Source of the DNA: a virus
UHGV virus genome: UHGV-0121619
Reading direction: 5' to 3' (one strand)
DNA length: 10,766 nt
Shown here: positions 2,444 through 10,436 of the stretch, piece after piece
Layout of the letters: the number at the start of each line of letters is the position of its first letter
Position numbering within the stretch: the first letter of the stretch is position 1
Notes under the pieces: model-generated
Seen by the model: the letters and a program-made list of their open reading frames with translations, nothing else
Database searches by the model: none
What the model was told of the DNA's origin: nothing
Position numbers and translations under genes: made by a program

Positions 2444-2549
2444 AAAGAAGATTTCCAATAATCAGAACAAGTCGGCTCCTGTTTAGTTACGAGCGACATT
2501 GCTCCGTGTATTCACTCGTTGGAATGAATACACAGTGCTTATTCGCAGC

Positions 2550-2876
2550 CTACATAATCATTCCGGTTATTATTACCATTTCAATATCGCTATCTTTCAT
2601 AATGATTGGAGTTGAGTTATCAACTTTACTTTTACTCCATTTTCCTGCATCAGTTTTTACCGCTCCACAATAAGAAAGCCAATCATCATCACAATGTTCT
2701 GGATCACTAATTCTGACAAGAACACGTGATAGTGCTTTTTCGATACTTTCATCACAATTAGCATTTGTGTAATTGCCGTGAGACAATTTCAAATCGTTAA
2801 CTTCATCTTCATTGGCATCAAAAATATAGATTTCAGTCGACTCTGGAACATTTTCATAAACCATTAAAACTTTCAT
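2550..2876 (-). CDS. hypothetical acidic protein (108 aa), early-left accessory gene
   Basis: Complete ORF MKVLMVYENVPESTEIYIFDANEDEVNDLKLSHGNYTNANCDES...; about 21 Asp/Glu vs about 10 Lys/Arg; no recognisable family. Confidence 0.5.
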   Translation of the reverse strand: MKVLMVYENVPESTEIYIFDANEDEVNDLKLSHGNYTNANCDESIEKALSRVLVRISDPEHCDDDWLSYCGAVKTDAGKWSKSKVDNSTPIIMKDSDIEMVIITGMIM

Positions 2877-2969
2877 TTTTACCCCATGTTGTTTATGCCA
2901 AAAATAAATGCCACCGTCAGGCAGCCTTGTTGTAAAGTCGGCGTTTGACTTTCTTGAGCATGGCTCACC

Positions 2970-3179
2970 TCAATCGTAATAAGCTGGAATTGATTTTCCG
3001 CGTTGCTTCTGGCGGCCTGAGCAGGTCACACCCATTTCACTGCGTGGCTTGCGGTAGTAAAGATTGTGCCTGTCTTTTAACCACATCAGGCTCGGTGGTT
3101 CTCGTGTACCCCTACAGCGAGAAATCGGATAAACTCTATTCACCCCTACAGAGAGCAAAAGAGAAACGCCGATGAACAA
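2970..3179 (-). pseudogene. remnant resembling the C-terminal region of lambda-type antiterminator N
   Basis: Last about 30 codons translate to KDRHNLYYRKPRSEMGVTCSGRQKQRGKSIPAYYD, closely matching recalled lambda N C-terminus (ERKNQRTWYSKPGERGITCSGRQKIKGKSIPLI); upstream part of the ORF lacks an Arg-rich RNA-binding motif; a complete P22-type N is present at 3770-4078. Confidence 0.35.
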
Positions 3180-3753
3180 CTCATGGTGGCAGGAACTAAT
3201 GCATTTTTTCCTGCAAGGAATGACACTTAAACAGTTGATTCATATGCTAATCATCCTGATCATATTGATTATTGTTATGCCGGTAAGCGTAAAAGAATGG
3301 ATAAACCTGCATAATCCAGAAATCCTTCCTCATTATTGGATGTATTACATCCTGTTGTTCTGCGTTAGCTATGTGCTTAACGGTGTTGTTAATTCCGCTT
3401 ATCACGCTGTGACTGAAAGAATTGAGGTATCCGCTGCTCAGAAGCGCAAATCTAAAGAAGAAAAATATGTGCAAGATTTGTTTGATTCGTTAACTCTTGG
3501 AGAAAGAGCGTATTTGGCATTCGCTGTAGCCGCGAATAACCAGCTAAAGACAGAAAAGGGAAGCCCCGAAGCAATCTCATTGCTCGAAAAAGGGCTTCTT
3601 ATTCGGATACCTTCTGCTACTGGATATCCTGAAATCGACCGTTTTGTTATCCCGGAACGCTATAGAAATGAGTGCTACATTAGGTTTGCTGGGAAGAAAG
3701 ACAGTCTTATGGATGAACTTATCGCTCAGGATAAGCATGGCAAAAACAAGTAA
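3172..3753 (+). CDS. sieB: SieB-like superinfection exclusion membrane protein
   Basis: 193-aa ORF with two N-terminal hydrophobic helices (LIHMLIILIILIIVMPVSV, HYWMYYILLFCVSYVLNGVV); convergent and adjacent to N as sieB is in lambda/P22. Family call from architecture and position, not alignment. Confidence 0.6.
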   Translation: MNNSWWQELMHFFLQGMTLKQLIHMLIILIILIIVMPVSVKEWINLHNPEILPHYWMYYILLFCVSYVLNGVVNSAYHAVTERIEVSAAQKRKSKEEKYVQDLFDSLTLGERAYLAFAVAANNQLKTEKGSPEAISLLEKGLLIRIPSATGYPEIDRFVIPERYRNECYIRFAGKKDSLMDELIAQDKHGKNK

Positions 3754-3769
3754 TTAGCAAATGATTTTA

Positions 3770-4078
3770 TCATCTCGCCGTCAGTTGTTTTGATTTCCGG
3801 TAGCCTGCCGCGTAAATGGCTACGTTTGGCAGGCAAATACTTCCACTGCATTCATCTGCCTTCTTGCAGCGAAGGCTTCCGAGTGATATTGCTTTTTCAG
3901 AAAGGCTTAAACGCTTTCTTGGGGCTTCCTGAACAGGTTCCTCACTGTCTGTGCCGAAGATAGAATCAATGATGTTGCAGATGGCATCACGCTCGATAGC
4001 CAGCTTTCTGCGCCGCTCATGACGGCGAGTTTTGGCATTTCCTGCAAATGTTGATTTCCCGTACACGATTACCGTCAT
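3770..4078 (-). CDS. N: antitermination protein N, P22 gene 24 type
   Basis: 102 aa from ATG 4076-4078 (MTVIVYGKSTFAGNAKTRRHERRRKLAIERD...), Arg-rich motif near N-terminus as in P22 gp24; AGGA RBS upstream; ORF track start at 4162 is an upstream in-frame Met. Confidence 0.85.
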   Translation of the reverse strand: MTVIVYGKSTFAGNAKTRRHERRRKLAIERDAICNIIDSIFGTDSEEPVQEAPRKRLSLSEKAISLGSLRCKKADECSGSICLPNVAIYAAGYRKSKQLTAR

Positions 4079-4197: not shown

Positions 4198-4232
4198 GCG
4201 CTTTGTCAGCGCCCCATCGAAGTTAAAGAGCC
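4198..4232 (-). promoter_or_regulatory. nutL (boxA + boxB), P22-type
   Basis: Minus strand reads GCTCTTTAA (boxA-like, 4223-4232) - 9 nt - GCGCTGACAAAGCGC (boxB hairpin, 4198-4212), between pL and N. Confidence 0.7.
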
Positions 4233-4269: not shown

Positions 4270-4340
4270 ATGTGTTTAGTATCACCGCTAGTGGTATGCG
4301 TGTCAACACCGCCAGAGATAATTTATCACCGCAGATGGTT
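4270..4340 (-). promoter_or_regulatory. OL1-OL2-OL3 operators with pL promoter (lambda-type)
   Basis: TATCACCGCTAGTGGTA (4280-4296), CAACACCGCCAGAGATA (4304-4320), TATCACCGCAGATGGTT (4324-4340); on minus strand -35 TTGACA (4301-4306) and -10 GATACT (4278-4283), 17-bp spacer. Confidence 0.85.
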
Positions 4341-4540: not shown

Positions 4541-4711
4541 TTATTGGTGCATTTGGCAGAGTGTAGTATCAGGTCCATAAGCCAAAGTAAAAACAGGCTT
4601 GTTGATCAATCCGTTGTTCTTTAATGATTGAATCATTTTACCTTGCTCGCTAACTTTTTGCTTGCTAAGTATTTCTGCCACTTGCTGTGTCAGTGATTTG
4701 TCTTTGCTCAT
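4541..4711 (-). CDS. hypothetical 56-aa protein, translationally coupled to upstream peptidase-like gene
   Basis: ATG 4709-4711 immediately follows peptidase stop TAA 4712-4714 (TAAATG); translation MSKDKSLTQQVAEILSKQKVSEQGKMIQSLKNNGLINKPVFTLAYGPDTTLCQMHQ; stop 4541-4543; not in ORF track (below size cutoff). Confidence 0.5.
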   Translation of the reverse strand: MSKDKSLTQQVAEILSKQKVSEQGKMIQSLKNNGLINKPVFTLAYGPDTTLCQMHQ

Positions 4712-5614
4712 TTATGACTCACTTTGTTCTGAGAATGGGAATGAAGACAGAACAAGAACCTGTCGATTTGTCTTATACATGTATTCATTAATGACGTTGT
4801 GCAGATTTTTTAACGCCATGCTAAAATCTTTGTCGTATGTAAAGTCTTCTACTTTAATTCTTAAGTCATTGATAAGAGTATTTATTCCTATCGTTCTTCC
4901 GTGAGAATGCCACTTTCCGTTGTCACTAAGAGCGGTAGCGATCATTTTAGCTCTCGCTTCTTTTTCCCTCTTGGAAACTAGCTTTCCTCGTTTTGTGTTA
5001 CCTTGATGAACCGTCCACTCTCTGAATTTATACTCTACAAGCCACTTCTTAAGCAAGTCTATTGATAGCTCTCTGGCTTGCTCGTATCTCCTTAAGTGCG
5101 CAAGATCTAACTGACTAAGCATCATTAGTTCAGCTTGGGTAATGGTTCCTTCTCTGGATTTAGTAATCATTTCTTCAACTTTATCAAGGTATCCCAAAGC
5201 AGGAACCCATTTACCGTCAGAGGATTGCACTTGAGGGTCAATGGGGCCTAATGAAGAAGCATAGTTCATGTAAATTTTATCTCCAGACATACACCATATT
5301 GTGCCTGCCGACATGGCCATATCTGGAATGATAAAATATACCTCTTGATAGAAATGCCTTGTAATTTCTACCATTTTTTCCACAGACTCAACAGAGCCAC
5401 CATTTGTATTGAGTATAATAACTAGAAATCTATTGGTACGACTGTTAGCCATCTCCCCAATAGCCTCAAGTTTTGGTTGGTAAACTTCTTTTGACCATGG
5501 AAAGATACCACCGTAGTACGCTATGACGTCGCAGCTTGGGAAAAAGTTATTTTTAAATTGCTCTAACTGCCAAGAAATGTATGTTTCTAGTGTTGAATCA
5601 AGATTTTGGCTCAT
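4712..5614 (-). CDS. ClpP/S49-fold serine peptidase-like protein in the rexAB position (candidate exclusion/defence gene)
   Basis: 300-aa ORF; block LVIILNTNGGSVESVEKMVEITRHF...YFIIPDMAMSAGTIWCMSGDKIYMNYASSLGPIDPQV resembles the GG...(A)ASGG nucleophile region of SppA/ClpP-fold peptidases (putative Ser102 in AMSAG); lies directly downstream of cI on the same strand. Confidence 0.75.
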   Translation of the reverse strand: MSQNLDSTLETYISWQLEQFKNNFFPSCDVIAYYGGIFPWSKEVYQPKLEAIGEMANSRTNRFLVIILNTNGGSVESVEKMVEITRHFYQEVYFIIPDMAMSAGTIWCMSGDKIYMNYASSLGPIDPQVQSSDGKWVPALGYLDKVEEMITKSREGTITQAELMMLSQLDLAHLRRYEQARELSIDLLKKWLVEYKFREWTVHQGNTKRGKLVSKREKEARAKMIATALSDNGKWHSHGRTIGINTLINDLRIKVEDFTYDKDFSMALKNLHNVINEYMYKTNRQVLVLSSFPFSEQSES

Positions 5615-5686: not shown

Positions 5687-6403
<717 letters not shown>

Positions 6404-7401: not shown

Positions 7402-8349
7402 ATGAGCAATACAGCAAAAATCTACGATTTCAGCGCCGCACACGAGCGCAGGAGCAACAGGATGGAGAACCAGAAAACTGGTTACATTCCGTTGTACCGG
7501 AGCATTCTGAAACAGTCATGGGCGAAAGATGTTTATCTTCGCACCCTGTGGGAAAACCTTCTCCTGAATGCCGCCAGAAAGCCATACAAAGCGAATTTCA
7601 AAGGTCATGAATGGCATCTGCAACCCGGTCAACTGGTTGTGACAGCAGCTGATTTAGGTCTTCAGTTATGCGACAGGCATGGCAAGCCGGCAAGCCGTGA
7701 TCAGGTTGAGCGGATGCTTCAGGTTTTTGTGAAAGAGGGGATGATCTCCATTGATGGAGAGAAGCAAAAAGGTCGTGTGATAACCATCACAAATTACCAT
7801 GAATATGCTCAAAAAATGGACAATTTACCCGCACATGAAGCCGCACAAACAACCGCACATGATGCCGCACATGACGAAGCCAGTAATGGCGCGGCTTTCA
7901 GAGTACATGCCGCACATGAAAGCGCACATGAAGCCGCACAAACAACCGCACATCATGAACAAGAAGGTATTAACAAGAATATAAATAATGCCCCCCTACC
8001 CCCCAATGGGGGCGGCGATGGGCAGGTTAAACCTGAACGTCGCAAGGCAGAACGAATCGACTACGAATCCTTCCTGAACGCCTACAACACCGAAGTCGGT
8101 GACAGACTGCCACACGCTGTTGCGGTCAACGAGAAACGCAAACGCCGCCTGAAGAAAATCATCCCGCAACTGAAAACGCCAAACGTGGACGGTTTCAGAG
8201 CGTATGTCAGGGCGTTTGTGCATCAGGCAAAGCCGTTTTACTTCGGAGACAACGACACGGGCTGGACGGCAGATTTTGATTACCTGCTGAGGGAAGATTC
8301 GTTAACGGGAGTTCGGGAAGGGAAGTTTGCAGACAGGGGGATTGCATGA
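7402..8349 (+). CDS. replication initiator (lambda O / P22 gp18-like) with internal origin
   Basis: 315-aa ORF; N-terminus [10 protein letters not shown] resembles lambda O MTNTAKILNF; contains tandem iterons, AT-rich tract and Pro/Gly linker mid-gene; stop overlaps helicase start (ATGA at 8346-8349). Confidence 0.8.
7829..7957. repeat. origin-like iteron array: two clusters of four tandem 12-bp repeats (CCGCACATGAnG / CCGCACAAACAA)
   Basis: Units at 7829, 7841, 7853, 7865 and at 7910, 7922, 7934, 7946; followed by AT-rich 7958-7990 and C6-TA-C6-AAT-G5 hairpin-prone segment 7991-8013. Confidence 0.75.
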
Positions 8350-10013: not shown

Positions 10014-10436
10014 GTGAGCAAGTGCCAAAAGTGCAATAACACAGGAATGTGTGATAGCGGAGGTTCTACTCCTTGGGGAGAGCCGATTTTTATTGAATGT
10101 GACTGCCTTATGAAAGATGACGAAAGCAGATGCCAGTTTGAAGAGAGTTGGTTACGACGTGGGGGCGAATCTTCAGACCTTATCCGTTACCCTGAAAATC
10201 ACCATGAAATTGGCAGTGGTGATATTGGTGGTCAATACGTGATGGACGATGTTCAAGGCCACTGGCAAACGTGGCAGGCATCGCGAGCAGCTATTGAAAT
10301 AACCGCGCCAAAGTTTATCGACAGCAGAGAAGCATTAGCCAAAGGGTTTACTGTTGATTATTCCAATGGCTTCGGTGATGCAATGGATGCTTATGAGGAA
10401 AACATCCGCGCCGCTGGAGTCAAAGTGAAGGAGTGA
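10014..10436 (+). CDS. hypothetical protein with N-terminal Cys-rich (CxxC...CxC) putative zinc-ribbon
   Basis: 140-aa ORF, GTG start 10014 with GGAGGT RBS upstream; MSKCQKCNNTGMCDSGG...IECDC; stop is 2 nt before ninB-like start. Confidence 0.55.
   Translation: MSKCQKCNNTGMCDSGGSTPWGEPIFIECDCLMKDDESRCQFEESWLRRGGESSDLIRYPENHHEIGSGDIGGQYVMDDVQGHWQTWQASRAAIEITAPKFIDSREALAKGFTVDYSNGFGDAMDAYEENIRAAGVKVKE

Follow-up and report, generated by a model that had tools for sequence, protein, structure and literature searches.

The UHGV virus genome UHGV-0121619 is represented here by a stretch of 10,766 nucleotides (hereafter designated as the window), which corresponds to the immunity and early region of a P22-like lambdoid prophage. 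Read along the minus strand, cI (5687–6400) is followed by an ORF for a ClpP/SDH-like protease, which takes the rex slot, then by a pL-like promoter, a boxA-like element and the antiterminator gene N; after N come sieB, which lies on the opposite strand, an ORF for a 108-aa protein, an HNH-AP2 gene, cIII, kil and erf. The right side of the window carries cro, cII, an O-like gene and a DnaB-like gene. The features around the 108-aa gene are listed in Table 1. Because the N_peptide match begins at residue 29 of a 130-aa ORF, the Met at 4078 is the probable start of N. No Rfam family was found in the window.

Table 1. Features of the early-left region around the gene for the 108-aa protein, with positions in the window (strand left empty where none applies).
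Feature	Position	Strand	Evidence or remark
kil	1552–1704	−	Pfam Lambda_Kil, 1.7e-20
cIII	1689–1823	−	Pfam cIII, 6.8e-26
HNH_3 + AP2 homing-endonuclease-like gene, next downstream of the 108-aa gene, in the ea10 slot	1823–2350	−	Pfam; GC content 36.7%
Intrinsic-terminator-like hairpin GCCCTC-N6-GAGGGC with T-run, downstream of the ORF	2416–2443	−	−10.7 kcal/mol, z = −2.0
Inverted repeat of 17 nt with a 4-nt loop, 82% complementary, directly at the left cassette junction	2501–2538		In conserved lambdoid flank
Single-gene cassette, 348 bp	2539–2886		blastn and alignment against HK140; GC content
CDS, acidic 108-aa protein, phrog_4658 family	2550–2876	−	ORF list, phrog_4658 match, dN/dS, AlphaFold2
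Putative GGGG Shine-Dalgarno-like motif, 6–9 nt 5' of the ATG	2882–2885	−	Read from ...AACATGGGGTAAAA followed by ATG
Terminator-like hairpin GCTGCC-TGAC-GGTGGC, then T-run, just upstream of the ORF	2900–2925	−	Weak: −8.2 kcal/mol, z = −0.66
ral remnant, last 17 nt	2917–2933	−	Homology to EP91A prophage and HK140 stops at 2933
~110 nt of unrelated sequence replacing ral	2934–3043		HK140 homology restarts at 3044, upstream of sieB
sieB, superinfection exclusion	3172–3753	+	Pfam SieB, 1.4e-25
Antiterminator N	3770–4078	−	Pfam N_peptide
boxA-like GCTCTTTA, candidate nutL between pL and N	4224–4231	−	Putative
pL-like promoter TTGACA-17-GATACT	4278–4306	−	10 of 12 consensus matches; taken as pL from its place between cI and N

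Two further parts of the window were observed in passing. The rexAB slot between cI and pL holds a 300-aa ClpP/SDH-type serine-protease-like ORF (4712–5614, −; Pfam SDH_protease, 1.6e-10) and also a 56-aa ORF (4541–4711, −), with a GC content of 38.5% and no PADLOC match; these ORFs could represent a moron expressed in the lysogen or a prophage defence gene not yet catalogued. Within the O-like gene (7402–8349), 12-nt tandem repeats (CCGCACATGAAG/A) form two arrays of ~3.7 copies each (7829–7874 and 7910–7953), which are probably origin iterons and which also generate His/Met/Cys-rich overlapping ORFs on both strands.

The 108-aa gene starts with ATG, and its product is MKVLMVYENVPESTEIYIFDANEDEVNDLKLSHGNYTNANCDESIEKALSRVLVRISDPEHCDDDWLSYCGAVKTDAGKWSKSKVDNSTPIIMKDSDIEMVIITGMIM. 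We confirmed the acidic ORF that the earlier note had described, together with its 'DANEDEVND' and 'EHCDDDW' clusters, and the net charge, estimated there at about −10, was computed to be −11 (12 D and 9 E versus 8 K and 2 R), with a pI of 4.36. Its per-residue acidity (−0.10) is the highest in the window; a 140-aa ORF in the nin-like region (10014–10436, +), which has an N-terminal Cys-rich motif, is nearly as acidic (net −11, −0.08 per residue). Neither a transmembrane segment nor a signal peptide was found in the 108-aa protein (maximum Kyte-Doolittle value over a 19-residue window, 1.1). Compared with an 81%-identical homologue, the gene shows 40 synonymous and 24 non-synonymous differences and a dN/dS of 0.07. 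Given this ratio, the full-length homologues in many phages and the conserved MKVL N-terminus, the ORF is a genuine gene under purifying selection and not a chance ORF. The conservation of MKVL across distant homologues also fixes the start codon. An ORF on the plus strand (2506–2673) was rejected as a hydrophobic antisense product of this AT-rich gene.

Hairpins lie on both sides of the gene, at 2925–2910 upstream and at 2443–2426 downstream. The one upstream has a counterpart in other phages just downstream of ral, and the one downstream is part of a flank common to many lambdoid phages and is annotated as 'terminator' in mEpX1. The inverted repeat at the left cassette junction could be an RNA processing or termination element. 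Since the distance from the upstream hairpin to the ATG is only ~34 nt, the gene probably lacks a promoter of its own, and promoter-like matches around it were no more frequent than in shuffled sequence. N-dependent early transcription is expected because pL, nutL and N all precede the gene and terminator-like hairpins flank it; to judge from this position, it would be transcribed only from N-antiterminated pL, as a delayed-early gene of the lytic cycle.

The cassette that contains the gene comprises the ORF and little besides, and comparison with phages that carry ral, HK140 among them, shows it to be an insertion. The window sequences at 2385–2538 and 2887–2933 are 89–97% identical to HK140, where they are ~11 nt apart just downstream of ral. 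With a GC content of 33.6% (versus 45.0% for the window) and a GC3 of 24%, the cassette is the part of the window lowest in GC. No direct repeats were found at its junctions, that is, no transposition signature. The E. coli EP91A prophage has the order N, ral and 108-aa gene, and the window matches it only as far as 2933. Judging from these alignments, ral is deleted in this phage and the 108-aa gene is kept. The earlier note had placed the gene in the ral/ea-gene neighbourhood of the pL operon; locus and operon were assigned correctly, whereas ral itself is absent here except for its last 17 nt, which survive together with the hairpin next to them. Variable presence between conserved flanks and signs of horizontal transfer mark the gene as accessory, and the analysis established that it forms a single-gene cassette which moves horizontally and which occupies a known hotspot of accessory genes, the N-to-cIII interval.

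In E. coli, the gene was found in 16 of 5,426 complete genomes, while the flanks are present in ~2,239; the exact protein occurs in 616 contigs of a large collection. At all 21 E. coli prophage loci compared, the gene lies in the pL operon and always downstream of N. The slot directly upstream of it is hypervariable: Ral occupies it at four of the 21 loci and an 81–83-aa phrog_2471 protein at five, while at others it is taken by membrane proteins (121 or 149 aa) or by proteins with lengths of 156, 210 and 227 aa. Downstream, the E. coli loci carry a 122-aa phrog_646 protein (which we take to be lambda Ea10), a cIII-like protein or homing endonucleases. Nearly all hotspot occupants belong to PHROGs of unknown function, the exceptions being the cIII-like protein and one PHROG labelled 'superinfection exclusion', and Ral is the only characterised anti-defence gene of the hotspot.

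Some of these neighbours deserve mention in their own right. The phrog_2471 protein, which is acidic, takes the ral slot at locus L002 (4518–4769, −) and also at L014, L016, L020 and L025, and its C-terminus ('...NKAA') is the same as in Ral, a likeness that suggests recombination inside the 3' end of ral. Endonucleases related to the HNH_3 + AP2 gene are present near homologues of the 108-aa gene at L013, L022, L024 and L054, and endonuclease-mediated exchange might help cassettes move in the hotspot. The 108-aa protein falls into a 90%-identity cluster (P0081, P0082 and P0089) whose representative is an unrelated 210-aa Cys-rich protein, the upstream neighbour at L026; the 163-aa and 210-aa 'members' of this cluster, considered as possible fusions, are really this unrelated neighbour and thus a clustering artefact, which accounts for the failure of an indexed search to retrieve the cluster of the 108-aa protein itself.

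Ral (PF11058), which acts in restriction alleviation, is the natural point of comparison. Both are small, phage-restricted and, by position, early accessory proteins of the same pL hotspot, and several E. coli prophages have the order N, ral and 108-aa gene. However, Ral is a basic (+3), Cys-rich protein of 66 aa, whereas the 108-aa protein is acidic, and the two show no sequence similarity: the 108-aa protein has no Pfam match, and the family HMM scores 0.5 bits on Ral. Because the two genes co-occur at some loci and are separate at others, they are neither allelic nor redundant. Silas et al. reported that orf184, from the ral accessory region, triggers the gop-beta-cII abortive-infection system (bioRxiv 10.1101/2023.04.06.535777). 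The product of orf184 is ~110 aa; it is not the 108-aa protein, as the deposited orf184 model begins MEALVVERSEDGYWT. The near-invariant motif of the family did not turn up in any of the 200 accessory genes of that screen, and a lone [VI]PE[ST] match among its sequences lies in ArdA and was rejected as chance. The RefSeq accession, the PHROG id and the homologue accessions are not mentioned in the literature searched.

The earlier note had recognised no known family. This stands for characterised families, since neither Pfam, NCBIfam nor PDB sequences gave a match and the PADLOC-DB defence-protein models gave 0 families at E <= 10; however, the protein is already catalogued, as phrog_4658 in PHROGs v4 ('unknown function'; E = 2.4e-38, residues 1–108 on positions 2–109 of a 109-position profile) and, in identical or near-identical form, as the RefSeq 'hypothetical protein' WP_001735521.1. 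Weak matches to 2Fe-2S ferredoxin and HORMA (E = 0.025 to 1) were regarded as noise, the fold searches giving them no support. A word-indexed protein search yielded few relatives, and the family was delimited by searching 1.84 billion cluster representatives exhaustively with HMMER, which returned only 73 of them (50% identity clusters) at E <= 0.001. All members tested match phrog_4658. Almost all are standalone proteins of 85–125 aa, and there were no informative fusions.

Homologues occur in at least six unrelated phage lineages, both temperate and virulent, that infect Gamma- and Betaproteobacteria; wherever the genome layout can be read, the homologue stands alone as a gene and has early or replication genes around it. 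The temperate carriers are lambdoid/P22-like phages of E. coli, Rac-like phages of Serratia, other integrase-carrying elements and a Burkholderia lambdoid phage. The Rac-like prophages of Serratia have the order repressor, homologue, kil, recE and recT, and in other temperate elements the homologue comes just after N or the repressor, or is the last early-left gene before xis/int. In two Serratia marcescens prophages (L028 and L029; 5029–5955), an abortive-infection gene with a BstA_C domain lies between the repressor and the early-left operon headed by the homologue, so that a defence gene stands alongside a candidate counter-defence gene. Four virulent groups carry the family: RB16/RB43-type T4-like phages, Jedunavirus (Klebsiella phages), Stephanstirmvirinae and a Demerecviridae phage of Aeromonas. 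Among Straboviridae, the carriers are RB16, RB43, other Pseudotevenvirus, many Klebsiella T4-like phages and further Straboviridae members; 195 phage records match, and the family appears to be widely kept in RB43-type and Klebsiella T4-like phages. At the T4-like loci examined (leB, RB16 and a Morganella phage), the homologue lies between ndd and the holin gene t, downstream of rIIB/ndd. It lies between the origin-binding protein and helicase genes in the T5-like Aeromonas phage and, in the Klebsiella phage vB_KpM_FBKp34 (Stephanstirmvirinae; L005, 3001–3333), inside a cluster of TerC, TerF-like vWA, TerD, TerD and TelA genes. No true plasmid was found to carry the family: the sole plasmid match, a Burkholderia gladioli record deposited as a plasmid, is a circular lambdoid phage genome. 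A family-pattern scan of GTDB species-representative genomes gave no confirmed relative. Since homologues are present in strictly virulent phages among early and replication genes, the function is argued to belong to the lytic cycle rather than to the lysogen.

Across 69 members, the best-conserved positions are L4, Y7, E8, P11, E12, T14, Y17, D20, H33, G34, Y36, N38, A48, L56, P90, D/E99, T104, G105 (invariant) and F106; a core of ~86 aa contains eight or more conserved polar or aromatic positions. Residues ~62–82, including 'EHCDDDW' and W80, are missing from the 86-aa forms, which make up about half of the family. Most members have a net charge of −10 to −14, with only ~6–8 acidic positions fixed in place, and conservation is strongest at the non-acidic P11, H33, N38 and G105. 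A small core in which many polar and aromatic residues are fixed is more in keeping with a specific interface or pocket than with a generic polyanionic surface.

AlphaFold2 gave a model with a pLDDT of 96.9 and a pTM of 0.88 from a 33-sequence alignment, which was required, since prediction from the single sequence was unusable (pLDDT 41). The modelled elements are beta1 (2–10), beta2 (13–20), alpha1 (23–32), alpha2 (43–56), a helical/loop insertion (~57–95) and a C-terminal strand (100–107). The product is thus predicted to be a soluble, acidic, single-domain alpha/beta protein in which a beta-hairpin and two helices are followed by a variable insertion and a C-terminal strand. Fold searches with the model retrieved no solved relative and, in particular, no solved DNA mimic, anti-restriction protein, sponge (Tad1, Tad2 or Acb2) or enzyme; likewise, Pfam and NCBIfam gave no enzyme domain.

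Given these data, we tentatively favour, at somewhat less than even confidence, the reading that the 108-aa protein is a stoichiometric inhibitor of a host factor, probably a defence system. A delayed-early accessory gene of the N-to-cIII hotspot, dependent on N antitermination in a lambdoid prophage, would produce a protein that binds and neutralises, stoichiometrically and early in lytic growth, a host protein widespread in Proteobacteria. The most probable target would be a defence system directed early against phage DNA that is entering or replicating, and binding would occur through the conserved patch E8, P11-E12, T14, D20, H33-G34-x-Y36-x-N38, D/E99 and T104-G105-F106 rather than by generic DNA mimicry. 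That the gene is expressed early, that its product acts by binding and what this product targets are all inferred here. A defence target is favoured over a core host function because the distribution is patchy and cassette-like. The label of the earlier note, 'candidate anti-defence or host-takeover factor', is reasonable, as the accessory hotspot, the early position and the early-gene relatives fit it; the anti-defence reading as such is supported by context and is plausible but unproven. Guilt by association is thin, since Ral is the sole characterised anti-defence gene of the hotspot, and the position cannot separate a defence role from a takeover role, because the operon also carries kil and cIII. 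The lack of the family on plasmids likewise counts against the favoured reading, as a general anti-restriction gene would be expected there.

The T4-like carriers bear on the same question. Their homologues lie in the same general early region as T4 Arn (anti-McrBC), Ndd and Stp, although there is no homology and no fold match to these proteins, and the RB43-type carriers lack arn (PMC2993671). In Table 4 of Petrov et al. 2010, RB43, RB16 and KP15 are absent from the lists for gene 42 (hmC synthesis) and arn, and how T4 relatives with unmodified DNA escape restriction was left open there (PMC2993671). Because of this absence, RB16-, RB43- and KP15-type phages would need other protection from restriction. 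Carriage of the family by T4-like phages without gene 42 and arn fits a counter-defence role; the correspondence is suggestive, weak and confounded by lineage. A broader proposal, possible but on the whole doubtful, is that phrog_4658 represents a structurally new class of counter-defence proteins in phages, one that neutralises a widespread DNA-targeting or early-acting immunity through a patch of His, Asn, Tyr and carboxylate residues. Such a class would be exchanged between lambdoid and Rac-like temperate phages on the one hand and T4-like, T5-like, Jedunavirus and phi92-like virulent phages on the other.

Takeover of the host apart from defence, by the binding of a core host protein (in replication, transcription, division, proteolysis or the nucleoid) for the benefit of lytic growth, is unlikely, and it is the rival that survives best. 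Kil, cIII, Ndd and T7 Gp2 are examples of host-takeover factors, and the gene shares its operon with kil and cIII, is directly upstream of kil in the Serratia prophages and is downstream of ndd in T4-like phages. Its apparently wide retention in RB43-type and Klebsiella T4-like phages (the 195 phage records) agrees with such a role, and the span over Gamma- and Betaproteobacteria would suit a conserved core target. However, the presence in E. coli prophages is very patchy (16 of the 5,426 genomes), and a swappable low-GC cassette is what one would sooner expect of genes in an arms race than of core takeover functions.

The conserved His, Asn, Tyr and carboxylate residues are just as compatible with a site for a ligand or metal, and the protein might then be a small ligand- or metal-binding protein or a mini-enzyme, such as a nucleotide immune-signal sponge or a divalent-cation site built from His and carboxylates. 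Pocket-type residues are indeed conserved (E8, E12, D20, H33, Y36, N38 and D/E99, with Y7, Y17 and W80), the size is like that of known sponge proteins, and one homologue resides in the TerC/TerF/TerD/TelA cluster. Against this, the model has no fold similarity to Tad1, Tad2, Acb2 or any enzyme, Pfam and NCBIfam give no signal, and W80 and its surroundings are missing from the short forms. We consider a ligand-binding function improbable.

The earlier note had likened the acidic clusters to those of DNA-mimic anti-restriction proteins. As a DNA mimic, the protein would have an acidic surface that stands in for the DNA backbone and fills the groove in which type I or other restriction enzymes bind DNA, in the manner of Ocr (T7 gp0.3) and ArdA, which are likewise small, acidic and devoid of enzymatic domains and are expressed early, as is expected of the 108-aa protein. 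The conservation of acidity throughout the family, with a net charge of −11 here, and the position of the gene next to the ral slot agree with mimicry. However, the charge density (−0.10 per residue, versus −0.08 to −0.16 for the hotspot neighbours) is ordinary for the hotspot, where Ral, the one proven anti-restriction protein of the slot, is basic, and it is less than half that of Ocr, presumably about −0.24 per residue. The 'EHCDDDW' cluster is apparently dispensable, being in the insertion that the 86-aa forms lack; the fixed acidic positions are few, and the top conservation is on non-acidic residues. ArdA and KlcA occur on plasmids, whereas the present family is off conjugative plasmids, an absence unexpected for a general anti-restriction function. 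Ocr is an all-alpha dimer and ArdA a three-domain elongated dimer, and neither has sequence or fold homology to the 108-aa protein. The structure and HMM searches against Ocr, ArdA and anti-defence folds that the earlier note had proposed were run and gave no match. The likeness to DNA mimics was therefore not borne out, and mimicry is quite improbable, even with the T4-like carriers that lack hmC synthesis genes (PMC2993671) counted in its favour.

A role in inter-phage competition or lysogen protection (superinfection exclusion or anti-satellite activity), like that of sieB, is suggested by the adjacent sieB gene and by the hotspot occupant whose PHROG is labelled 'superinfection exclusion'. 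It is very improbable, since the ~34 nt upstream leave no space for a promoter of its own, promoter-like matches are no commoner than in shuffled sequence, and a gene that terminators precede on the strand read from pL should not be expressed in the lysogen. In addition, the protein has no membrane segment and no PADLOC match, and its homologues occur in strictly virulent phages. Finally, a non-functional or chance ORF, for which nothing speaks except the missing annotation, is already refuted by the dN/dS of 0.07, the motifs conserved over the 73 cluster representatives and the pLDDT of 96.9.

At present, the 108-aa gene is one of many uncharacterised phage accessory genes. It is nevertheless a well-defined and good candidate for experiment, with orthologues in tractable phages such as RB43, and even without a function it offers a compact domain of 86–110 aa with a high-confidence model, no solved relative and clear residues to mutate. 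If the stoichiometric inhibitor that we favour neutralises a defence system, it would represent a structurally new inhibitor family, and its broad spread among phages would make it a tool for finding the target system. If phrog_4658 is a counter-defence class, it could help explain how phages of the RB43, RB16 and KP15 types escape restriction, and it would matter for the range of hosts open to therapeutic phages of Klebsiella, Enterobacter and Cronobacter, among which carriers are widespread.
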